64,000 nt of DNA from an uncultured virus (IMG/VR IMGVR_UViG_3300024518_006364) (taxonomy: Duplodnaviria > Heunggongvirae > Uroviricota > Caudoviricetes): the IMG/VR virus record IMGVR_UViG_3300024518_006364. One strand, 5' to 3'. The notes beneath the pieces are model-generated. The model searched no databases. It was not told the DNA's origin and saw nothing but the letters and a program-made list of their open reading frames with translations. How positions within the stretch are numbered: position 1 is the first letter of the stretch; each line of letters begins with the position of its first letter. Of the stretch, positions 7,560 through 55,947 are shown piece by piece. The translations under genes and the position numbers were made by a program.

Positions 7560-8117
7560 ATGACCGACGACCGGGACATTCAGCACGTACCCATAAACGT
7601 TGAGCGCGAGGCACGCGACGCTCGTGTCAATGCCGCATTCGTCAAGGCCCTCTCCACAGCCTCCAAGGAGGGAGACTTTGATAAGGTGGTGGCCGCGGCA
7701 AGCGCGTTTACTCGCGCAAAGCTGTCCGAGCGTTCCTTCGCCAGCATGATGTTCAACCACAAGGCCGAGCGCATCGCCAGCGGATACCTGATGCACCTCA
7801 TGGCCCAACAAGAGCGGACCGCATGTGGCCAGGAAGTTGGGATCGAGGCCCCTATTTTCGAGTTAGCGTTTCTCAACGCAGACGGACCCTACTGCGACAT
7901 GTGCGAGGCATGCTGGCTCCTGCGTGATCAGTCGCCTGGGGTGAACAGATACGCCCTGACAGCTCTCGATGACGACAACGGCGGCCAGTACATCTTCACT
8001 GAGCCCCAGAGACCGTTCATCAATGCGACAGATAAGCCTGCGAAGAACGGTGTCCCTCCTGTCATTCCTCCGCGTTTGCTCAAGAAGCACACGGAACACA
8101 TGAATGGACCCGGCTGA
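7560..8117 (+). CDS. Putative zinc-finger protein (DMCEACW family)
   Basis: H..TACG..DMCEACW..FTEP; paralogs present in the window. Confidence 0.6.
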   Translation: MTDDRDIQHVPINVEREARDARVNAAFVKALSTASKEGDFDKVVAAASAFTRAKLSERSFASMMFNHKAERIASGYLMHLMAQQERTACGQEVGIEAPIFELAFLNADGPYCDMCEACWLLRDQSPGVNRYALTALDDDNGGQYIFTEPQRPFINATDKPAKNGVPPVIPPRLLKKHTEHMNGPG

Positions 8118-8517
8118 CTACATTCTTCACATCGCAGTGCCCGATAGCGATGGAACCTGCCGTCGCTTCAAGACCTACTGCGGGGAGAAAATCCCTGAGG
8201 ATGCCCTCTGGAAGTGTAATCCGATCATGCTGTCTTCCGAAGGTCCGTTCGAGGATATGTGTGAAGCCTGCTGGCTCACCGCGAGGAATCAGCGCGAGTT
8301 GCACATGACGCACTTCCTGCTGCTATTCCCCAAGAAGGAATACAATCAGGCATTCTTCACTGAGCAGGTAGCAGAGAAAGCGATCGAGATCGACGCACTC
8401 GATACCGCCGAGGAAATCATGCGTCGGGCAGGGAACAAGGGCGTCAGTCTTGAGGACTTGACATACCCCTTCAGAACGGGGCAACCTGGTGATGGAGGTA
8501 CCGATGATGAGACCTGA
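8104..8517 (+). CDS. Putative zinc-finger protein (DMCEACW family)
   Basis: H..TYCG..DMCEACW..FFTEQ. Confidence 0.6.
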   Translation: MDPADYILHIAVPDSDGTCRRFKTYCGEKIPEDALWKCNPIMLSSEGPFEDMCEACWLTARNQRELHMTHFLLLFPKKEYNQAFFTEQVAEKAIEIDALDTAEEIMRRAGNKGVSLEDLTYPFRTGQPGDGGTDDET

Positions 8518-8600
8518 CTCATAGGCACAACGCTCCCGCGCTCCCCCGCCACCGCTCCGCCCGAGAGAACCCAACAACCATTTTCCGCTTGGAGAAGACC
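8494..8600 (+). promoter_or_regulatory. Candidate leader peptide MMRPDS(amber)AQRSRAPPPP
   Basis: GGAGG at 8494, ATG at 8504/8507, TAG at 8522-8524, in-frame RAPP codons at 8537-8548. Confidence 0.55.
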
Positions 8601-8942
8601 ATGATTCACCCGATCACCCAGTACCGACTGGAGCAGAACAGCCTGGCGATCGTCATCCGCGAGACCAAGGAGAACCGGAAGGGCGCCAACCACGAGGCCC
8701 AGTGCAAGGCAGCGCGCCTGGGAAAGCAGTTCCGTCTGCGGCACATCGCCTACTGCGAAGTCCGCGGGCGCACGCGCGAGCAGATCGAGCAGCCCAAGAC
8801 GAGCCTGCTGTCCGTGAAGGACGAGGCCGTGATCACGCTGCACAAGCAGCAGCTCAACCGGCTCATCAAGGACCACGACGAGAAGTGGGAGCACGAGCGC
8901 CAGATCAGGGAGGGCGTCACCGCGTCAGCGGCGGCGTCGTAG
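8601..8942 (+). CDS. Hypothetical phage protein (RHIAYCEVRGRTREQIE motif) upstream of Pth2
   Basis: GGAGA RBS with ATG at 8601; strong codon bias. Confidence 0.75.
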   Translation: MIHPITQYRLEQNSLAIVIRETKENRKGANHEAQCKAARLGKQFRLRHIAYCEVRGRTREQIEQPKTSLLSVKDEAVITLHKQQLNRLIKDHDEKWEHERQIREGVTASAAAS

Positions 8943-8990
8943 GGTCGTGAGCGACGGGACCTATCTGGTTCTGGGGGCAATGAGCGGCTA

Positions 8991-9326
8991 TTGCCTGTGG
9001 TGTCTTGTGGACATCCTGCTGTCGTGGCGCCGCCACAAAAGGCGTATGTCCTCGTACGCCGAGACCTGGGACCGGCATACGGAGCGGTCCAAGGAGGACA
9101 CGCCCTAGCGGAGCTCCTTTTACGTGGTAAAAGGGGTTGCTGGAACAACGACACCCTGGTATATCTCGGCGTCGAAGACAAGGGAGACCTGGAACGACAG
9201 ATGGAACGACTCAACCAGAAGGGCATCCTGTACTCCGTGTTTCGGGAGCCCGACATCGGCGATGAGGTGACTGCCCTGGCCTGCGTAAGCGATGGCCGGG
9301 CGTTCTCCAATCTCTCCCTGTTCTAA
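8991..9326 (+). CDS. Peptidyl-tRNA hydrolase 2 (Pth2)-like protein; start uncertain
   Basis: Motifs YVLVRRDL..AVQGGHA..FREPDIGDEVTALA. No in-frame ATG upstream of the domain. Confidence 0.75.
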   Translation: MPVVSCGHPAVVAPPQKAYVLVRRDLGPAYGAVQGGHALAELLLRGKRGCWNNDTLVYLGVEDKGDLERQMERLNQKGILYSVFREPDIGDEVTALACVSDGRAFSNLSLF

Positions 9327-9343
9327 CCCAGCAGTGCCATAGC

Positions 9344-9418
9344 GGGGACGTAGCTCAACGGTAGAGCGCGCGGCTGTTAACCGCGTGGCTGTAGGTTCGA
9401 ATCCTACCGGCCCCGCCA
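9344..9418 (+). tRNA. tRNA-Asn(GTT)
   Basis: Cloverleaf; anticodon loop CTGTTAA; TTCGAAT T-loop; CCA end. Confidence 0.95.
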
Positions 9419-9429
9419 AAAGGAAACCA

Positions 9430-9834
9430 ATGGAAAACTCCAAAACAGTGGGAGAAAGATCGGAAGCACAAGTATTGGCCATGTTTTTGCGACTGGGTAA
9501 AACTGTACTCCTCCCTTTTGGAGATAACCAGAGATACGACCTTGTGGTGGAGGAAGACGGAGAATTTACCAGAGTGCAATGTAAGACGGGGCGAATTAAA
9601 AACAGGGCGATCCACTTCGACACCTGTTCGTCCCAGAGTCACCGAGGAAAAGGCAAATTAGACTACAGGGGACAAGCCGATCAGTTCGGGGTTTACGTTC
9701 CAGATCTCGACAAAGTTTACCTGGTCCCCGTCAAGGACGTTGGGCACACGGCGGCGACCTTGCGCCTGACTCCTCCCAAAAATAACCAAGGGACGGGCGT
9801 CCGGTGGGCACACGACTATGAACTCAGTAGTTAA
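9430..9834 (+). CDS. PD-(D/E)XK endonuclease, free-standing homing type
   Basis: Motifs GERSE..PFGDNQRYDLVV..RVQCKTG. AT-richer than neighbours; directly follows a tRNA. Confidence 0.85.
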   Translation: MENSKTVGERSEAQVLAMFLRLGKTVLLPFGDNQRYDLVVEEDGEFTRVQCKTGRIKNRAIHFDTCSSQSHRGKGKLDYRGQADQFGVYVPDLDKVYLVPVKDVGHTAATLRLTPPKNNQGTGVRWAHDYELSS

Positions 9835-9843
9835 AGGAGAAAG

Positions 9844-10485
9844 ATGGAATCCACGACGATCATTTGCAATCGCTGTAATCAACTCCTGTCCCACGTCTGT
9901 AACAAGGACTTTGCCAAGGCCTGGGCACGCCTACAGGAACTCACTACCGAGGGCCTGGACAACGGAATAATCCGGGCGATGAGGTCGAGCCCCTACTACG
10001 CAGCCGGTGACGAGAACGCCCCAATCTTCTCGGAGAAATTCTTGTACTCACTGATGGGCAAGGAAGAGGCCCGCACAATCCTTGCCGTGCTGGACAACCT
10101 GGTCCGCGCCGCAGGCATCGAGCCCAGCCGTATGCTGCGCGAGCTGGCCAAGGACAAGCGCCGGGCGCATTTCCCCCACGACTGCTGGGCGTGCCAGTTC
10201 CAGGGGAGCTTCACGATGGATAGCGGGGAGGTCTATGACCTGTATCGCTGTGACTCCACTGACCGGAAGCTGCGCCCCGACGGCCCTTCCTACGTGGCCC
10301 GCAACGGACAGGAGCCACACGAATACTGGTCGATTCCTTACCGAGAGCTGCTCTCTTTGGAAGAGGGCAAGCGTGTCCTCGGTGCACTGTCGATCGAGGT
10401 TCTCAAGAGGGCCAGGAAAATCGAGGAACACTATGAGAGTGCGCGTCGTCGCCGTGAGAATTCACGACAGACAGAACCAGGGTAA
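9844..10485 (+). CDS. Hypothetical protein with C-terminal HDCxxC..YDLYRC domain
   Basis: AAGGAG RBS; domain shared with 33321-33815. Confidence 0.65.
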   Translation: MESTTIICNRCNQLLSHVCNKDFAKAWARLQELTTEGLDNGIIRAMRSSPYYAAGDENAPIFSEKFLYSLMGKEEARTILAVLDNLVRAAGIEPSRMLRELAKDKRRAHFPHDCWACQFQGSFTMDSGEVYDLYRCDSTDRKLRPDGPSYVARNGQEPHEYWSIPYRELLSLEEGKRVLGALSIEVLKRARKIEEHYESARRRRENSRQTEPG

Positions 10486-11083
10486 GGCACGCCCAATCCT
10501 GATTGGTTCCCACGACTTGGAAGGCCCCATCAGCCACGTGCTCTGGGGAATCTGGGGGCCAACCTACGCAGTCTACGAAGAAGACGTCGTAGAGGTCGTT
10601 GAAGAGTACGGCATCGTCGAGACCGGGGACTACGATGCTGTAGAGGTCTTCGAGAAAGAGCTCGTGGTGAAGTACAACGAGAAGTACCCAATCAAGCCTG
10701 CCAACCCAGCGAACAAGAAGATTGCCGAGGAGGCCACAGGCTTCTGTGCGCCCGACGGCAGGTACTTCGACTGCCGATACGAGGAACACCGCGGGTTGGC
10801 CAGCGCACTGATCGAAATGCTCTACCTTGAAGAGAAGAAGGGCAAGGGCTTCACCTACATGGACAACCTGGTCTTCCTCGACAAGATGGGTTGGGCACGC
10901 CTGCAACGCGGCGGCGTGCATGTTGAGGGGTATGACTTTGAGAAGATCACTGCTGCCCAGAAGCGCACGTTGCTCAAGCTGATGGGCGCTTGTTCCGACA
11001 AGAAGAGAGCGACGCGTCTTGCCCGGGACCTCCGACGCGCGGAGGGAGCGGATCTGGACTGGGAGGACAGCCTGGACGGTTAG
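10433..11083 (+). CDS. Hypothetical protein
   Basis: GAGG RBS with ATG at 10433; GC3 bias. Confidence 0.6.
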   Translation: MRVRVVAVRIHDRQNQGKARPILIGSHDLEGPISHVLWGIWGPTYAVYEEDVVEVVEEYGIVETGDYDAVEVFEKELVVKYNEKYPIKPANPANKKIAEEATGFCAPDGRYFDCRYEEHRGLASALIEMLYLEEKKGKGFTYMDNLVFLDKMGWARLQRGGVHVEGYDFEKITAAQKRTLLKLMGACSDKKRATRLARDLRRAEGADLDWEDSLDG

Positions 11084-11088
11084 TCCCG

Positions 11089-11164
11089 GCGCGTATAGCT
11101 CAATGGTAGAGCGAGGAGACTCTAAATTTCCCGGTTGCCGGTTCGAGTCCGGCTGCGCGCACCA
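11089..11164 (+). tRNA. Amber suppressor tRNA (anticodon CTA)
   Basis: Acceptor GCGCGTA/TGCGCGC; D-arm GCTC/GAGC; anticodon arm GGAGA-CTCTAAA-TTTCC; T-arm GCCGG-TTCGAGT-CCGGC; ACCA end. Confidence 0.85.
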
Positions 11165-11186: not shown

Positions 11187-11526
11187 GTGATTTACCATAT
11201 CGAGAAGGAAGTCCTCGTTGCCTTCTGTGATCTGTGACGAGAAGATTCCACCTGGAACCCCGTGCAGGACCTACTTCGTCCACAACAGCGGGCCCTCTGG
11301 CAATCTGTGCGAACAGTGCTGGCTGCACATCATCGCGATGCCGGTGGAAGAGCGCCCCTGGTCTGTTGTCGTAGCTGGTGTACCCGGAGAGCCCATGTAC
11401 TGTTTCTCCAATCCGAGTGACTTCTTCGTCCCCCCTGTGCTTGGGAAGGTCAAGACCCAGCCCCAACTGGAGCCCAAGCTCGACATAGAAGACTGGAGGC
11501 AACGTGTCCTATCCCAACACGGCTGA
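11187..11526 (+). pseudogene. Frameshifted member of the DMCEACW zinc-finger family
   Basis: AGGAGG and GTG at 11187 open a frame that stops at TGA 11235-11237. The homologous body (CDEKIP..LCEQCW..YCFSNP) continues in the +1 frame. Confidence 0.5.
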
Positions 11527-38469: not shown

Positions 38470-40070
38470 GTCCTCCACCACAAGGGAACGTGAATGAGTT
38501 TGTGGCTTGGTTGGAGAGGTTACAGTGATAGTGATGTGTTGTCAAGGGAGAATGCGTGCATAATCTCGTTGAAAACAAGAGAGGGAAAGGGAATGATTAT
38601 TGTTGGGGAAAGAGGGAGGGGTGATTGGTTGTATCAAGGTGAATCCGTATTGATGTGCACGTGAACATTAGGGTTTAATCGGGGGTGGAGGGTATTCAAC
38701 GCGTTCGTGCGGGGAGGACATGTATATACACGTAATCCGGTGCGTGACGGGTTGCCATACATATAGGGCAAGGTTGAGGGGAACTGGATACTCTCTATAT
38801 ACTACTACTACTTTCTTAAACCAGTACAATGTAGTAGTAGTAGTAGTATAGGGACGTGGTTTCAAGGGGTTAGGGCTGGACTTTTGCGAGCACTCAAGGA
38901 TAGGCCAGGAGGGAAAGGTGAATAAGGCCAGCAAGGTTGCCCGGAGCAAAGAGTGCATGCCATTGAACGGTTTGGTCCGGCCGTAAGGGCACCAATTACA
39001 CGTTTCTCGCTTGGAGGCCCCGGTGGTGGAGAACAAGGAAACGATGACATCTTGGTGGGTTGTGCCCTGATAAGAGTTATTGGGACATTTCGTCCGCATG
39101 GATAAGGAGGCCAGCCGGGAGGCGCTGTGAGGGACGAACGTGAGCCCACAAGGCCAATGTGGTGTAAGGGGTGGTGGAGAGCACGATCGCGCCCGGGCGG
39201 CCCTGTGAGTGACCCGATTGGCCTAAATTCAACAGACCCACAAACCCACCCGACCGGCGACCGGCCGCGGACCCCGACTCGAGCAGCGTGGTGGTGGCGT
39301 GGTTGTCCTACATCCTCCTACCACAAAGAGGGCCTCCGCTCTCTGGAGACGGATGGAAGAAACTGAACTGACCCCCCAGCCCTCCACCACCGAATTCTCA
39401 CTTGCTCCTGGAAACACAGCCTCCGGCGTGCTCTCCACCACATCGTTCTCCTGGTGTCGGAGAGCGCATCGCCGCAGGCATTATATTGTTGTCCTGGTGG
39501 GGGAGAACGAGGCTTCCTCCCCTCCACCTTGTTGCCCTTGTTGTCCCCAAAACCAAACCGCTCCCCAACACGGGGTCAGCCATGTGGTGGGGAAGACTTC
39601 GTCGACTTCTTCCACCAGGCAGCGTGGTGGTGGTGTGAACAACGTGGAGGAGAGCACGGCGACGTCGAAGACTGGCTGACGAGGAGGACAAGGTGGTGGA
39701 TGGTCCAGGCTCAACTATGAGGAGCGGCAGCGGGTCCCATCTACCTTTAGGACCGCAGAGCGGTGGTCGTCAAAGCCACGGGGGGAGGGTTGCTCTCAAA
39801 AAAATCCCCAAATTTTTACCCAGAATTTTAGGGGCTCTTTTTGACCCCCCTGCTCTCCACCACCCAGAAATTTTGCTGCCCCCGACCCGTTGGGGTCCCC
39901 CACCACATCGAAACGCCGTCAACGACGTTTTCAGCGAAGCTCGGAGGGTTTTCAGGTAGAAGAGAATGCTCTCCACCACCACACTAGTCCGGCGGCAGGG
40001 TTCCGGTGGTGGACAGCGGGATTCTGGTGGCTGACGCGAGGTGTCTCGGTGGTGGAGAGCACTTCATTAC
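38470..40070. other. Non-coding, compositionally distinct region with a repeated 13-mer; candidate origin or packaging/terminus region
   Basis: AT-rich core; inverted (TAC)n/(GTA)n repeat; GTGGTGGAGAGCA copies in both orientations; A/T tracts. Confidence 0.5.
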
Positions 40071-40123
40071 GTACAACGCCGGATCGCGACCGACCGGCTT
40101 CAAAAGGTGAACGGAGAACAAGG

Positions 40124-42294
40124 ATGGAAAAGGAGAAGGAGAAATGCGCGGACTGTGGGTGTGACTTGCCCGCGGGCCACGAGAAATACTGCAACGGCTG
40201 TTTCATGTCGCGGTGGGCGAAGGGACTCTGGGATGTGCGACCGACCGGCAGCAAAAGTGAACAGGGAGGACAAGGATGAGCGATCGATTCAAGTGGGTGC
40301 CGCCGAGCGGAAACGTGACCGGCATCTTCCTGATACTGGTGCTGATCGTGGTCATTGTGGCCGTTCTGGTTTGCACAGCGATGGCGGTCAGCGGACAACG
40401 GTTCACTTGCTCGTGTGAAGAAGGCTGCTTCAAAAACACGTCGCAGACTGAATTGCCCTTTGGGGCTGGAGGGAGTGAATGAGGTTCGTAAAGCTGCCCA
40501 CGGACCTGCAACATGACTTTCACGTGCTCATCCACGACCTGGGTGAGGAAATACAGGTTCTCTTTGATACGATGGGGATGACGGACTCAACGGACACGGC
40601 CAAGAAGAACGTCGCAGAACTCAACCAATTTGTTGCAGACCACGGCGGCGTGAGTTTGGCGCCACGGACACGAGAATGGCTCCGTGCCGTCGAAGAAGAG
40701 GAGAAGCATGCCCGACAAGGCGACTGACGAAAAAAAATCGAAAGAACGTTCCTTCCCCCAACCCCGACTCCCACCTCTTGAACTGGTAATGAAAGGTGAC
40801 GCGTCCCAGACGGTGGTTGCGTATGCCTGCTCGAAGTGCGGGAACGTCAGCACCAAGGACCTGGCCGAGCGGTGCTGCGCGGGCACAGTGTGTACGTCTT
40901 GCGGCGTAGCCCTGACTGGACATCGTCTCACGTGCACTGACTGCTGGAACGCAAAGCAGGCCGCCATCCAGGCGAGGCGCGTGGACAAGGCCGCGAGGAT
41001 TGCTTCCAGCGAGTACCACGGCGCCCTCTACTGTGATTCTCTCGGCCACAATGACGGATTCTTTCGGGACGTCGATGAACTCGCCGAATACTGCAACGAT
41101 GAGGGAATTCGCGAGATCGGCCCTGTCTTCGCGTGCCACGAGACCCGGCCTTACATCGACGCAGTCGGGGCCGTCGAGCAGGCACTTGAGGAGCATCACG
41201 AGGATGCCGAGATGGTCGACATCAGGGGCCTCGAGGATTTCCTGAAGACGTGGAACGCGAAACAGACGGACAAGACGTGGACGCCGGACTGGAGAATCGT
41301 GATTACGGGTCTGGATGTCGTCTACGTCCCCGAGGAAGGAGAAGAGACCGATGAGTGACGGCGATACGAACCTGAAAGGCAAGCTGCGCATCTTCTTCGA
41401 TCGCGACGGCAAGCTGGTGAATGCTGTGGTCATCCAGATCAACGGGGTCGAGTTGGATGATGACAACATTCCGGCCGCGGTGATGGAGATCGACCTGACC
41501 AAGGCTGTGTCGCACGAAGACGGGACGTGCTGGTTCTATCGGCAGGACGAGTTCGCGCGGATGCGGCCCGCATTCGCCTCGGAACGGGCTCTCAAGCCTC
41601 TCCAACCGTCCATGCCCTGCTGCATCCAGTTGACCGACGGCGTTGAGCACTTGACGGAGCATTTGCACACGTTTTTCAACGTGCTCAACAGGGGGCTCAT
41701 CGAGACGCTACAGCAGGGCCACGCGGTACTGCGAAGAGAGGCTGGACACGAGGACAACCTGCCGCCTCTCACCGAGGAGGACATGGCCGCGATTCAGACG
41801 CCGGATCCGATGAACATCACCGTGGTCATGGGCGAGCACGAGTACATCGCCGAGATCTGCGGCACGCGCTCTGATTCACATGAACTCGTTCAGTTCGGAA
41901 CTGGGCGCAGTGTAGATGAAGCTGTAGGCAATCTTCTCCAGGCCAACAAGGCTGCCTTCGACGTCAAGGACGTGTTCCTCGACGATGGGTTGTGCACATG
42001 CGACAAGTGCCATGCTCGTAGAAAAAAGACGACAAGGCCACCCTCCACCACCTAGAATCCGAGATAGGCAGGAGGTTGAAGATGTCCAAGAGTCGTGCTG
42101 CACAGAAGGCGTATCAGGCGCTGCTGAAAAAGTCGCCCCGGCTTGCGAAGAGCGAGGCGTCGCTCCAACGCACGATAAGCAAGGCAGAGAAGGAGCACGC
42201 GGCATTTCTGGAGGACTACAAGAAGAAGTTCGGCAAGCTGCCGCGGACCAAGAAGGGCTCTTTGGACATCACGCGCATTGGTGCACCTCGTTAG
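40124..42294 (+). other. Run of hypothetical CDSs (incl. 40276-40482, 40479-40727, 40708-41358, 41351-42055)
   Basis: Coupled ORFs downstream of the promoter motif at 39955. Confidence 0.55.
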
Positions 42295-42537
42295 CCGAAA
42301 AAATTCGTTAAAGAAGCCCTGACAGCGACCGACTCCCGTCTAATCCGCCCCCACAATCCCCTGCCACCAGAAATGCCCCCTGCGTGGCTTTGTAACGCAG
42401 AACGTCTCCCGCATGGCCGTGGTGGGAGGGGTCTTTACCTGCGGCGGGAGGCGGGGACAAGGGGAGCATCATACCCCGATCGTATCCCCGCCTCTTTTTT
42501 GGGTAGAAGAACATGGACAATAAACATGGAGGTCACG

Positions 42538-43413
42538 ATGAAACGCAATCTCTATCTGACCATCCTGGCGCTGTTCTTCTTCGCGTGCGGCAGCGAGACG
42601 CTCGGCGTTCAGGGTGACGAGGGTGAACCAGGCACAACGGGGCCGACAGGACCCCAAGGCGAACCTGGCTCACAGGGAGCGAAAGGCGCGAAAGGAGATC
42701 CCGGGGCGCCTGGCGAGCAGGGCGCCGAAGGCTTGCAGGGAGCACAAGGCCCGCGCGGGGAACAGGGGCCGCAGGGACTCCCAGGAGCGGATGGACTACC
42801 AGGGCCGACCGGCCCAACGGGTCCGCGCGGTACGAAGGGGGCCTCAGGTTCTGATGGCAGCCCGGGCGCGCAGGGAGAAAAGGGCGACACAGGAGAGAAC
42901 GGTGCCGCGGGCGCCGAAGGCCCGCAAGGTGCGCCGGGATTGCCCGGATTGGACGGATCGACTGTGAAGTGGGTCGATCAGAACGACAAGTACGTCGGGA
43001 CGACCGGGACGCCCACGTCCTCGCACGTTCTCTACTACAATCCCCTCAACGGATACTGGTATCAGTTCAGCGTTCACACCGGGCGAATGGACCTTCCACA
43101 ACTCGACGCATTCCACACCGAGTACGACTGCGGCGGCGCGACATTCTTAGGCAAGTCTGTGCCAGAGGACACGGTGCCACCGAGAGTCGTCTTCCAACGG
43201 TCCTGGTACGCAGACAGTTACCACGTGCGCGAGGACGACGGTCAGATGCGGGAGCAGGGAGGCAACAATGTCTCTCGACGAACCAAGGATGGTTGCATCA
43301 ACGGCAACCATGGCCCGATTGTTCTCGGTCTTCCCGAGAGCGCCGTCACCTCGATCAGCGTTCCCGCGCCTCCCATCGGCATCATCGGTCCGCTCGTTCC
43401 CACCTTTCAGTAA
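42538..43413 (+). CDS. Collagen-like (Gly-X-Y) putative lipoprotein
   Basis: Signal peptide MKRNLYLTILALFFFA-C; about 38 G-X-Y triplets; globular C-terminus. Confidence 0.8.
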   Translation: MKRNLYLTILALFFFACGSETLGVQGDEGEPGTTGPTGPQGEPGSQGAKGAKGDPGAPGEQGAEGLQGAQGPRGEQGPQGLPGADGLPGPTGPTGPRGTKGASGSDGSPGAQGEKGDTGENGAAGAEGPQGAPGLPGLDGSTVKWVDQNDKYVGTTGTPTSSHVLYYNPLNGYWYQFSVHTGRMDLPQLDAFHTEYDCGGATFLGKSVPEDTVPPRVVFQRSWYADSYHVREDDGQMREQGGNNVSRRTKDGCINGNHGPIVLGLPESAVTSISVPAPPIGIIGPLVPTFQ

Positions 43414-52850: not shown

Positions 52851-55800
52851 GGCAGGCCCGACTTGGAATGGCCTGGGCTGGCGAGGAAACGTCAGGCTAG
52901 ACTGGTCGAGGAGCGGCAGGCTCGGCTAGGCATGGACCGTCGAGACCCGTTGTTGCAAGACGCGGCGAGGCATGGCTGGCCTTGGTTCGGCAGGCATGGC
53001 ACTCCACGCCCTGCCGCGGTGCGGACGTGCGCGACTAGGCAAGGAAAGGCAGGCCACGCACTGCCCGGTTTGGGCAGGCACAGCTTGGCGTGGTCGGGCA
53101 GGCAAGACGCCGCATGGTGGGGTACCGCATTCCTCGGTGTCCCAAGGCGGCGCGACGCGAGGCAGGAGAGGCTGTGCATGGCGCGGTTTGCCGTGGTGCG
53201 ACAGACCCGGCTTGGCGGGACAAGGCGTGGATAGGCAGGCGACGCACGTATTCGCGAGGCTAGCTTTGGGAAGACATGGTCAGGCAGGCAAGGAATCGCA
53301 AGGCTCGTCAGCGTTAGGATTGTCCGGGAATGGTCCGGCAGGCGTGGCAAGTTAAGGCATCGAGGTGTGGGACACGGCAAGGCAGGCACGGCGAGGACTC
53401 GTGCGTCATTGTGAGGCTGCTCCGCGAGAGGCGAGGCAGGCATGGTAACGATGGTGCGGTGGCGAGAGGTCGCGACCGCGAGGCGAGGCAGGCTCCGTTA
53501 GTCTCGGGCGGAAAGGTGCGCCTCGGCACGGCATGGCAGGATCGGTGAGGCTAGTCCGCGAGATGCGGGACAGCGCTTCGCCGGGCGTGGCAGGCGACGC
53601 CAGTCTGCTCAAGTAACGGCGGCGAAAGATTGGGCAAGGCAGGCGACGATACGCGGGGCAAGCGGCGGAAAGGCGTGGTTTGGTGCGGCAGGCGTTGCTA
53701 GTCCCGTCACGGCACGGAGTGGAAAGTCCCGGTTAGTCGGGGCAGGCGAGGTAGCTCATGTGGACGCAAGCCCACGAGGGGCGCGGCAGGCAAGGCATCG
53801 TGAGGTACGGTGGCGACGGCCCAGGAAGCACATGCTCTGGTGTCGCCAGGTACGGCAGGCAAGGCACGGCGCGGTGCGTCGGCGATCGGCGCGTCCTCGA
53901 TCGGCCAGGCACGGCAGGCAACGCAAGTCCGCGCATCACTAGGCGCGGAGGGGCGACGTTAGGCAGGCGGCGCATGGCGAGCCTACGCCTGACACGGTTC
54001 TGCAAGACATGGTGGGGCAGGCGAGCGTTCGCTTGGTTCGGTGCGGCGTGGCGTGATTCGTACCGGCTCGGCCGGAGAGGCACGGCTGCGATGGACATCG
54101 TGGGGTAAGCCCCGGATGGGCAGGCGACGCTGTGCGAGGCGAGGCTTTGATCGTGATGGCGTGGCGCGACGTGGCTCGCGGCGGTCTGGCAGGCAAGTCG
54201 GCGCAAGTCACGGCACGAAGTGGCGCGGTTAGGCAGGCACGGCAAGTTCACGCAAGATCCGGAATGCCATCCCACGGCGAGGTCAGGCAGGCGTCTCTAG
54301 TCGACGCGTGGAAGGCCAAGGCAACTTCGGGCGAGACGCGGCAGGTCCGGCGGTACTAGGAATGCCATTGCTGGGCGCGACACGCATTGCCAAGGTGTTG
54401 CAGGCCCCGAGTGGATAGGAATGGCAAGTCTGGGCTTCGTGAGGTTAGGCGTGGATCGGCAGACTAGGCAACACGCTGTGAGGTCGCGACAGGCACGGCT
54501 GGGCTCGGCAGGCAACGCCTCTCTCGGCTATGCTTGACGGGTCCAGACAAGATTTGGCGTGGCAGGCTACGCTTCGAGTTGCTCGACAAGCCGGGTCCGG
54601 GATCGGCCGGATCTGGTAAGGCGGGGCAGGAAAGGCCCGGCAACTCAACGCCCGAAAAGGCGGGGCACGGGTGACGCACGTTGTGGCAGGCAAGGACCAG
54701 CACGGCAAGTCCAGGAAGCGTCCGGATAGGCAAGGCAGGCATGGACTGCTCTGGCGAGGCACGGCGTTGCGTCGTGTGTTCGGGCAAGGCATGGAATGCC
54801 CAGGAGGGGCAGGCGCGGACCGAATAGGTAGTGCGAGGCGTGCCGTCGGCCGGTAGCAAAAGGCACGGCAGGCGTGGCGAGTCCCGGAACGGAACCAAAG
54901 GCAAGGCAGGGCGGGGTCTGGCAGGCGAGGCTGCGTTTGGAGGGGTGAGACACGGTGTCTCCAGGTGGGGCATGGCATGGTGTGGCAGGCACGTCAACGC
55001 GAGGCTTCGAATGCCGAGGCGTAGCGAGACTAGACGTGGCACGGCAGGCGGAGCGGGTCCACGCGTGGCGCGGAGCGGTTGCGACCGATCTGGCAGGATC
55101 GGCAAGACGCGTCTAGGAATGGTTCTCCCAGGCATGGAGAGGAGCGGCAGGCAAGGCTGCGACTGCAACTGCAAGGCTAGGCGAGGCGTGGATGGGCAGG
55201 CTAGTAGTCGCGGGGCGAGGCTGGGTCACGAACAGTCAGCCCCGGCTTGGCAGGTTCGGCGTGGATCGACAAGGACTGGCAGGCAAGCCTCCGTAAGGAG
55301 TGACAAGGCAACCCGTTGGCACGGTACGGCAGGCTCGGCGGAAGGCGTCGAGAGGCTGGTCTCGGATACGATAGGCATGGAAAGCCGCGGTGGGACAAGG
55401 CAGGCAAGGATCGCTTTGCTGGCAATGGCAAGGGCTGGTCAGGCAGGCATTGAGAGCCTTGTCTCGGCTCGGCTTGGACGGGTGACGCATGGCAGGCTAC
55501 GTTACTCAACGTATGCCAGGACACCGCGAGACACGGTTAGGCAGGAAAGGCTCTGAGAGGCCGGGCGTGGAGTGGACGGTCCAGGCTGGGCATGGCACGT
55601 CGAGGCAGGACTCGCATGACGAGTCTTGGCGCTACGGAGCCAGGTGCGGAATCGAGAGGCACGGCAGGCGGCGCAAGAGAGCGCAAGGCTGGACCGCGAC
55701 AGGAATGGCGAGGCAGGCCCCGAAACGGTGGGGCAGGCGAGGATTGTTGAGGACGGCCATGGGTTGTCCCGGAGCGTCCACGCGAGACACGGCAGGCATG

Positions 55801-55947
55801 GCATTGCCAGGACGGGCGAGTCTACGCTACGTGGGTCCAGGCAGGCAAGGCACGGACGTGCATGTACAGGCAAGTCCTCGAGAGACGAGGTCTCGCAGGT
55901 TGCGCGAGACGAGGAGCGACTTGCATTGGCACGGCGTCGAAAGACAC
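52851..55947 (+). repeat. Non-coding array of ~55 units, each GGCA + n x (GGN-NN pentamer); candidate guide-RNA array (not CRISPR)
   Basis: GGCAGG delimiters at 52851, 52915, 52989, 53048, 53097, 53161 and onward. Spacings of 64, 74, 59, 49, 64 fit 5n+4. Confidence 0.9.

Follow-up and report, generated by a model that had tools for sequence, protein, structure and literature searches.

Very short leaders enriched in the codon that they sense, such as trpL, hisL and TnaC, let the position of the ribosome decide about the downstream genes, and at tnaC the stalled ribosome masks a Rho loading site. In prfB, the gene of release factor 2 (RF2), an in-frame UGA gauges termination capacity and is resolved by +1 frameshifting. 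RAPP-type arrest peptides, described in the accessible text of three reports, comprise ApdA, ApdP, ApcA and SecM, the last with RAGP (PMC12992588; PMC10951233; PMC7897499). They are monitoring substrates with export or membrane signals, are released by a pulling force and control Sec/YidC genes. In an engineered transcriptional switch built on trp and tna leaders, an amber codon in the leader makes downstream expression suppressor-dependent (Liu, Qi, Yanofsky and Arkin 2011, as summarized in the accessible part of a review, PMC6412442). Phages with suppressor tRNAs are common, and some decode a stop codon as an amino acid in the late phase of infection. The subject here is a 64,000-nucleotide (nt) stretch from an uncultured virus of the Caudoviricetes (IMG/VR record IMGVR_UViG_3300024518_006364), called the window in its full length, and in it a short leader (8494-8600) in which an amber codon precedes an in-frame RAPP motif, upstream of a gene for a protein termed gpX. 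The parts of the leader and the gpX, Pth2-like and tRNA(CTA) genes of the window are on the + strand.

Comparison with homologous loci makes it likely that a conserved phage module, formed by a leader, gpX, a Pth2-like protein and tRNA(CUA), has its translated leader at 8494-8600, and that readthrough of the leader UAG would free the gpX start by way of a stalled ribosome. The comparison, carried out in silico, covered sequence, synteny, conservation of the in-frame TAG and of [R/K]xPP, the position of the anti-Shine–Dalgarno (anti-SD) sequence and the specificity of the hairpin. Relatives of gpX were recovered at 44 viral loci by an alignment-based scan and at one more (L001) by a metagenome scan. 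Two other candidates, L002 (a transposase) and L003, proved false and are excluded from all counts.

In the 120 nt compared upstream of each gpX start, the general layout is an SD, an ATG, one to seven codons, TAG, a few codons and [R/K]-x-P-P, often with an immediate stop. A strict pattern, M-x(0-8)-TAG-x(<=25)-[R/K]x?PP at -200 to -40, is present in 34 of the 45 loci and a looser motif in 41. Outside the leader position, the strict form occurs three times and the looser one seven times in 849,652 nt on both strands, all three strict matches lying in the GC-rich window. Between the first TAG and the SD, 46 of 48 CCNCCN pairs fall in the TAG frame, none being in the +1 and two in the +2 frame. 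The preliminary description of the locus, made from the letters of the window, had named an in-frame arrangement of upstream open reading frame (ORF), stop and RAPP, conserved in homologous loci, as a check on its proposal of an amber-readthrough sensor. The relatives bear this out in pattern and in frame, and the arrangement as a whole is far above chance once the homologous loci are compared. In-frame conservation and tRNA synteny together support the sensor interpretation, with corrections given below.

An SD-like motif stands ahead of the leader start in 42 of 45 parsed leaders, exactly two codons precede the TAG in 29, and up to the end of the motif there is one TAG in 27 leaders and two in 18. 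The base after a leader TAG is a purine in 61 of 63 cases (G 34, A 27; G background 15.5%), and a purine at this place favours suppression. The peptides themselves vary: 43 of 44 are distinct, with 12 different Pro-codon pairs in use. They run to 8-25 residues up to the motif and never contain a hydrophobic segment. KPP (12) and RGPP (11) are the commonest motifs, followed by RSPP (4), RPP (3), RSP (3), RAPP (2, window counted) and RDPP (1), and a stop directly follows the motif in 32 of 45 rows. Examples are MT-TAG-IQIPP-TAG-IRGPP-stop (L005), MK-TAG-INNYLNQQFRGPPW... (L016), MT-TAG-GFDKQRAPPY... (L033), ML-TAG-VSKPP-stop (L044), MR-TAG-INRSRGPP (L052) and ML-TAG-DKRLDMG-TAG-VAKLRPP-stop (L054). 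The R-(A/G)-P-P core of known arrest peptides is therefore found in the window, as RAPP, and in relatives; the preliminary description had seen RAPP correctly, the relatives having mostly RGPP or KPP-stop. According to the accessible text of a mutational study, RAPP and RGPP are the strongest, most versatile and least context-dependent arrest cores and are not relieved by EF-P, while RDPP and RSPP are partly permissive (PMC12992588). The RGPP/RAPP/RSPP/RDPP part of the leader spectrum matches that ranking; the KPP/RPP-stop class, 15 leaders here, is outside the scope of the study as far as its accessible text goes (PMC12992588).

A separate recurrence concerns the residues just before the gating stop. 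S/I-G-F-(T/V/I/P) stands directly ahead of the TAG in eight leaders (L021, L025, L028, L029, L035, L038, L040 and L043), for example as MTKSGFV-TAG or ISGFT-TAG, which suggests that the nascent-chain context of the gating stop may itself be under selection.

The most constant companion of gpX is the tRNA. The preliminary description had noted an amber suppressor tRNA downstream, and in the window tRNA(CTA) is located at 11089-11164, with anticodon CUA in the 7-nt loop CUCUAAA, a cloverleaf fold, U33 and a purine at 37 (ARAGORN; Rfam tRNA 61.5 bits against a gathering threshold of 29). It is the only one of 14 tRNA genes in the window with this anticodon. A same-strand tRNA(CTA) accompanies gpX at 44 of the 45 loci (43 of 44 viral loci and L001, by ARAGORN), and at 26 of them it starts between -38 and +50 nt from the module end. 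Of the 45 loci, 41 also have a Pth2-like gene, and in the canonical module the tRNA directly follows it. Where gpX comes before Pth2 and the start can be called (36 loci), the Pth2-like gene begins within gpX in every case, with an overlap of 8-194 nt at its end; L044 has both in a single ORF, a natural fusion, and in L001, L013 and L020 the gene order is reversed. Two further copies of the module are found in contigs of metagenome-assembled genomes (MAGs; L052 and L054); four gpX relatives in MAGs of the candidate phyla radiation have neither tRNA-CTA nor a leader of this type. The window is the sole case of a gap between gpX and the Pth2-like gene (+81 nt), with tRNA-CTA another 1,762 nt on. 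In the place of the direct tRNA-CTA neighbour, 9344-11083 holds a tRNA-Asn, a PD-(D/E)XK endonuclease (PF11645, E 4.4e-36) and two ORFs, and looks like an insertion that split the module.

In the window, the leader SD, GGAGG (8494-8498), lies inside the 3′ end of the gene at 8104-8517 (C-terminus ...GDGGTDDET, TGA at 8515-8517); it and both leader ATGs fall within the last 24 nt of that gene, in another frame, an overlap absent from the preliminary description. As this gene stops only at its TGA, the true spacer is 8518-8600, 83 nt with C 37, A 19, G 16 and T 11. The first part of the leader ORF, ATG ATG AGA CCT GAC TCA (8504-8521, letters confirmed), runs into the gating TAG (8522-8524, next base G). 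The second part, GCA CAA CGC TCC CGC GCT CCC CCG CCA CCG (8525-8554), reads AQRSRAPPPP and is accessible only through UAG readthrough. The candidate arrest core RAPP (8537-8548) is in frame with the TAG and ends at -53 from the gpX start, against -50 to -96 in the relatives; its frame then has no stop until TGA 8948-8950. By letters and base composition, 8531-8558 is a C-rich tract with three copies of CGCTCC (8531-36, 8539-44 and 8553-58). The letters and positions in the preliminary description (GGAGG, ATG ATG, TAG, RAPP and TTTTCC-GCTT-GGAGAA) are exact. The 10-mer TAGGCACAAC occurs four times in the window, its other three copies (19617, 35032 and 63872) being outside the spacer; it was dropped as a recurring element, the flanks of the copies being unrelated.

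Minimum-energy folds computed from the first TAG to the start codon place the gpX SD in a hairpin. In the window, the anti-SD CUCC (8555-8558), 7-10 nt past RAPP, pairs with the gpX SD, GGAGAAG (8591-8597, with GGAG at 8591-8594), 6 nt before ATG 8601. The resulting extended hairpin (8555-8594) has 12 pairs and about -8.9 kcal/mol and is predicted to sequester this SD; its 5′ arm starts 7 nt past RAPP, within the footprint of a stalled ribosome, and the SD forms its 3′ arm, with the start codon coming next. The preliminary description had put the SD into a small local hairpin, UUUUCC-GCUU-GGAGAA (8581-8596, -4.0 kcal/mol). That hairpin exists, in the centroid fold, and remains when 8531-8560 is occupied; it is the weaker fallback, and the structure shared with homologs is 8555-8594. 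Across the comparison, the partner bases of the gpX SD fall between -5 and +20 nt relative to the end of the motif in 41 of 45 rows, namely the window and 40 loci; the SD is unpaired in L013 and L036, and L017 and L039 have no SD call. Folding z-scores of the gpX leaders have a median of -3.38, and a strong fold (z < -2.5) together with a paired SD is seen in 22 of 40, against a median of -0.33 and 10 of 183 for the other SD-led leaders of the same loci (Fisher p = 2e-12). In these models, the SD-masking hairpin is specific to the gpX leader. In the model (n=42), the SD is unpaired with a median probability of 0.17 in the free RNA and again of 0.17 when a ribosome sits at the first TAG, compared with 0.52 when the ribosome is placed at the motif. 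As in arrest-peptide systems, the motif is positioned so that a stalled ribosome would unmask the downstream SD, with a weak effect in the window. The C-rich, G-poor spacer of the window would also suit Rho and, by analogy with tnaC, the CGCTCC tract could double as a site of Rho loading that the stalled ribosome would cover.

From these data we infer that ribosomes initiate at the leader, that this tRNA brings about readthrough and that stalling occurs on a short peptide, as well as the direction of control and the roles of gpX and the Pth2-like protein. Ribosomes would initiate at ATG 8504 or 8507 and reach UAG 8522 within a few codons. If release factor 1 (RF1) wins there, they would leave, the hairpin 8555-8594 would stay and gpX would be poorly translated. 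If the charged phage suppressor tRNA decodes UAG, reading would continue in frame into R-A-P-P-P-P and the ribosome would stall at peptide-bond formation, covering about 8531-8560, including all three CGCTCC copies, and so blocking the strong hairpin. The SD would then be at most in the weak local hairpin and gpX would be translated, the Pth2-like protein following by coupling in the relatives. The leader would in this way report the efficiency of UAG suppression and set the output of two proteins that travel with the suppressor tRNA.

A wider proposal, which we hold only tentatively, is that the module controls stop-codon reassignment as a self-contained unit: its leader would gauge the competition between release factor and suppressor, and gpX and the Pth2-like protein would feed back, by blocking RF1 or by hydrolysing the aminoacyl- or peptidyl-tRNA of the suppressor. 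Such feedback might either bring a sharp switch to a recoded late programme or hold readthrough at a set level. In such a controller the gating stop would follow the anticodon, UAG with tRNA-CUA and UAA with tRNA-UUA, the latter in Lak phages. In these Prevotella megaphages the module is TAA-gated (L050, Lak-B5, 841-1800; L058, Lak-A1, 1736-2900), with the order tRNA(TTA), leader with RGP or RGSP, gpX-like gene, Pth2-like gene. Lak-B5 and Lak-A1 both have an in-frame TAA at the gating place, their leaders reading MELQHW-TAA-VTCDRGP-TAA and MKLQHW-TAA-VTLSRGSP..., respectively. This match of gating stop and anticodon also speaks for the leader mechanism itself. The read-out there must differ, since the hosts are not expected to use SD pairing.

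A number of observations weigh against the leader acting as proposed. Several concern the window itself, where the six frames contain 6 occurrences of RAPP, Markov simulations giving 9.0±2.9, and the fold of the 103-nt leader is ordinary relative to shuffled sequences (z -0.71; second estimate +0.17). The window SD is still 91% paired under the masked footprint (probability of being unpaired 0.01 rising to 0.09), and occupation of 8531-8560 brings relief only from -8.9 to about -4.0 to -4.7 kcal/mol. Because no stop follows the motif, ribosomes escaping the stall would cross gpX out of frame to 8950. Among the relatives, masking the motif fails to lift the free SD above 0.6 in 21 of the 36 loci that have a free SD below 0.3, and the looser pattern is missed in L001, L012 (TTG start), L018 and L040. 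Twelve leaders end in KPP-stop and seven in RSP/RGP or similar, which are not proven arrest cores, and the nascent chain at the stall would be only about 13-15 residues long. The Pth2-like genes of L015, L028 and L038 contain internal TAGs, and some relatives probably read TAG as sense; in these, the leader would act like a classical codon-enriched one. The match of gating codon to anticodon is based on two related Lak genomes, whose hosts are not expected to use SD pairing.

The same letters might be read as RNA structure alone. On this account, which we regard as unlikely, an anti-SD hairpin masks the gpX ribosome-binding site, for instance to time expression from an internal promoter in the manner of T4 late genes, M-x-TAG is an unrelated minigene or the end of an upstream gene, and Pro-Pro is CCUCC seen through the translation table. 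CCTCC indeed encodes Pro-Pro and is an anti-SD alike, CCT CCN being used in 22 of the 37 leaders that end in PP, and the hairpins are strong and leader-specific, with AT-rich loops. The leader TAG also doubles as the stop of a longer upstream ORF in several loci, for example L005 and L008. The key control is the frame: 46 of 48 CCNCCN pairs share that of the TAG, where 1 in 3 would be expected. Moreover, the Pro pair is preceded by R or K, and 15 of the 37 leaders use CCA CCA, CCG CCA, CCC CCA or such, which are not anti-SD and have the SD partner 4-20 nt further on. The stop right after the motif also speaks for a peptide, as does the retention of the peptide pattern in Lak phages without SD logic. 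About as improbable, in our estimate, is a leader that reports failure of UAG termination, for instance when a phage or host event has lowered RF1, the tRNA being merely the means of reading on, an alternative that the preliminary description had itself offered. RF1 and the suppressor compete at one codon and are inseparable from sequence alone. Moreover, PP-TAG units, a slow-terminating context, occur in seven leaders (L004, L005, L006, L017, L023, L030 and L047), and Pro-Pro ahead of a stop slows termination. The constant companion of the leader is nevertheless the tRNA gene and not a release-factor gene, and the purine after TAG is the context that favours suppression.

That the window copy is fortuitous, a GC-rich and C-rich 83-nt spacer reading RAPPPP after a chance SD-ATG-TAG, or a decayed, non-functional relative, we judge very improbable. 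Taken alone, the window gives this account some footing. RAPP stands at chance frequency, as does RAGP (5 occurrences in six frames against 7.8±2.4 simulated), three other matches to the strict pattern lie in the window, the fold is not significant, and the module is rearranged, with its 81-nt gap and the tRNA 1.76 kb away. GGAGG-N4-7-ATG has 53 sites on the + strand, 50 of which open ORFs of at least 40 codons; three (8504, 28480 and 58898) lack a long ORF and, by this count, would need no explanation, because the - strand, with 6 sites, gives 4 short ones by chance. These counts, with an SD and ATG inside the upstream gene and the ordinary fold, had initially led to a reading as pure chance, which the homologous loci overturned. 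Against decay in the window stand the distance to the gpX start, as in the relatives, a proper SD, a TAG followed by G, a canonical RAPP core and an anti-SD 7-10 nt past it. Global recoding of TAG in the window phage was rejected: in-frame extensions past most TAG-ended genes score as non-coding, with another frame scoring as coding, and a downstream gene lies in the same frame in only 4 cases. This phage uses TAG as a true stop for most genes.

The gene that the leader would control, gpX (8601-8942), encodes a 113-residue helical protein with the motif YRHxHIAYCELRGRxREQIExP and ends in TAG then G. The GC content at third codon positions (GC3) is 0.94 for the gene and 0.9-1.0 in the frame of ATG 8601, and this ATG is taken as the start because the N-terminus MIHP aligns with those of the homologs. 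With a profile built from gpX and three relatives, 758 representative clusters match at E<=1e-3; 54 members examined against Pfam and PHROG gave no noteworthy match. The predicted structure, a helical hairpin with a long helix, is confident (mean predicted local distance difference test score 94.3); its fold matches are generic helical hairpins only (Foldseek E >= 0.74, VIA Z <= 6.9), and the protein atlas gave nothing usable for it.

The second gene (9024-9326) encodes a predicted Pth2-like hydrolase; in what the preliminary description called the Pth2 operon, gpX is the first gene and the Pth2-like one the second. Its GTG 9024 start is uncertain, fitting the N-termini of homologs and lacking an SD. 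The window protein scores 16.7-17.1 bits against PF01981 (cut-off 23), and 20 of 35 aligned relatives match this family at E<=0.01 (best 3.8e-6). A profile of 35 Pth2-like proteins matches the solved Pth2 chains 24bt_A (9.4e-5) and 2zv3_A (2.9e-4). By profile, and below the curated cut-off, the product is a divergent Pth2 relative. The Pth2-like genes of XacN1, phiAS5 and RAS14 have no gpX and no tRNA-CTA within 1.5 kb.

The overlap of their genes and their fusion in L044 speak for joint action of gpX and the Pth2-like protein. Our best guess is that both would balance termination against suppression at UAG or would clear by-products such as peptidyl-tRNA, and a peptidyl-tRNA hydrolase would suit a situation in which ribosomes pause at UAG or become stalled once past it. 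The two proteins might just as well feed back on RF1 or on the suppressor itself.

In the window, gpX and the Pth2-like ORF share a frame, and no stop lies in the 81-nt spacer between them; the gpX stop is TAG 8940 followed by G, and none of the candidate starts TTG 8991, GTG 8997, 9000 and 9024 has an SD. It is therefore possible that the Pth2-like protein is made only as a UAG-readthrough extension of gpX, as suggested by the shared frame, the missing SD, the overlap in 36 relatives and the L044 fusion; the codon usage of the spacer, which prefers another frame (-0.51 vs +0.51), speaks against it. In frame 1, a 53-codon ORF (8947-9108) shares about 85 nt with the beginning of the Pth2-like gene; it encodes a hydrophobic then basic peptide and has coding-like codon usage (GC3 0.80-0.87). 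A second route to dependence on UAG decoding is suggested by the Pth2-like ORFs of L001, L013, L059, L060 and L061, which open with M-x(1-3)-TAG in frame. These ORFs belong to a second subfamily, the VQASHACIEA type, and lie at 2276-2608 in L001, at 4505-4837 in L013 and near 2480-2510 in the other three, and in L001 a strong SD precedes the ATG of M-x-TAG and none the alternative GTG.

Like ApdA, ApdP, ApcA and SecM, the leader is a same-strand upstream ORF with an R-A/G-P-P core and a predicted stall on the 5′ arm that masks the downstream ribosome-binding site. It differs in its length of 8-25 residues, the lack of an N-terminal export or membrane signal, the stop that gates the core and the link of its genes to a suppressor tRNA. 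It would resemble RAPP arrest peptides at the ribosome only and is not a Sec/YidC monitoring substrate. With trpL, hisL and TnaC it shares a very short peptide enriched in the sensed codon and the decisive position of the ribosome; unlike them, it would sense a stop, and its read-out appears translational. A terminator or antiterminator with a U-run, as expected of an attenuator, is missing: a scan of 8000-9500 found no promoter or terminator patterns on the + strand. Rfam has no match within the leader. As in prfB, an early stop would serve as a gauge, here in a separate leader and with a dedicated suppressor tRNA. Whereas the switch of Liu et al. is engineered and transcriptional, as far as the review's accessible text tells, this one would be natural, sits at the locus of the suppressor and has an arrest core.

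In phage, a close described counterpart is the compact code change module of suppressor tRNA, aminoacyl-tRNA synthetase and release factor, thought to drive the stop-to-sense switch (bioRxiv 10.1101/2021.08.26.457843). The module described here has no synthetase or release factor; the other, in the accessible text of the preprint, lacks gpX, a Pth2-like gene and a leader, and neither 'hydrolase' nor 'leader' appears there as a word. The trigger of the phage recoding switch 'is poorly understood', in the words of the accessible part of another paper (PMC10879173), and the authors of XacN1 found no target for the two CUA tRNAs of that phage, according to the part of their report available (PMC5852040). 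The literature covered, which excluded subscription journals and supplements, did not describe an amber-containing leader, gpX or a Pth2–suppressor-tRNA module. If the leader works as proposed, a compact cis-element would turn stop-codon suppression itself into a regulatory signal. It would extend arrest peptides from secretion and small-molecule sensing to stop-codon decoding, be a natural counterpart of the engineered amber-leader switch and could serve as a reporter of suppression efficiency for genetic-code expansion. It would also give a context to gpX, without a Pfam or PHROG name, and to a divergent Pth2, both tied to a suppressor tRNA in 41-44 of 45 loci.

The window stretch or part of it is contained in nine seawater and sediment metagenome runs, none of those listed being an RNA run, and contigs from four runs show no differing letter. 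Neither its DNA nor its proteins have a match in 50,697 GenBank phage records, and single-protein scans of viral and genome contigs were empty; one protein, P0001, is 99% identical to that of the window.

The window appears to come from a large, uncultured phage of roughly 60% GC, and nearly all of 45 further proteins scanned are without a Pfam family. Three small paralogs with C-x2-C-W (MCEACWL / LCEQCWL) and without a family match flank the module (7560-8117, 8104-8517 and 11218-11526). About 3 kb at 52900-55900 lack a clean ORF, have a GC content of 0.63-0.65 and a GC skew of +0.19 to +0.24 and contain at least 17 same-strand copies of GG-N3-GGCAGGCA(A/C)GGC at irregular spacings of 44-404 nt. 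Tandem Repeats Finder found no tandem repeats in 52.3-56.4 kb; candidate roles of the region are an origin, a packaging site and a protein-binding array. Another 1.6 kb or so (38600-40200), with no convincing ORF, hold several of the most C-rich, G-poor 60-nt stretches of the window. A 561-residue protein (255-2638), which matches a JAB domain weakly (E 0.0055, short of the cut-off), adjoins a ThiF-family E1-like protein (E 6.6e-17), and the two may be a phage pair for ubiquitin-like conjugation or deconjugation. Finally, 42400-43413 encodes a collagen-like protein with Gly-X-Y repeats and an N-terminal hydrophobic segment.

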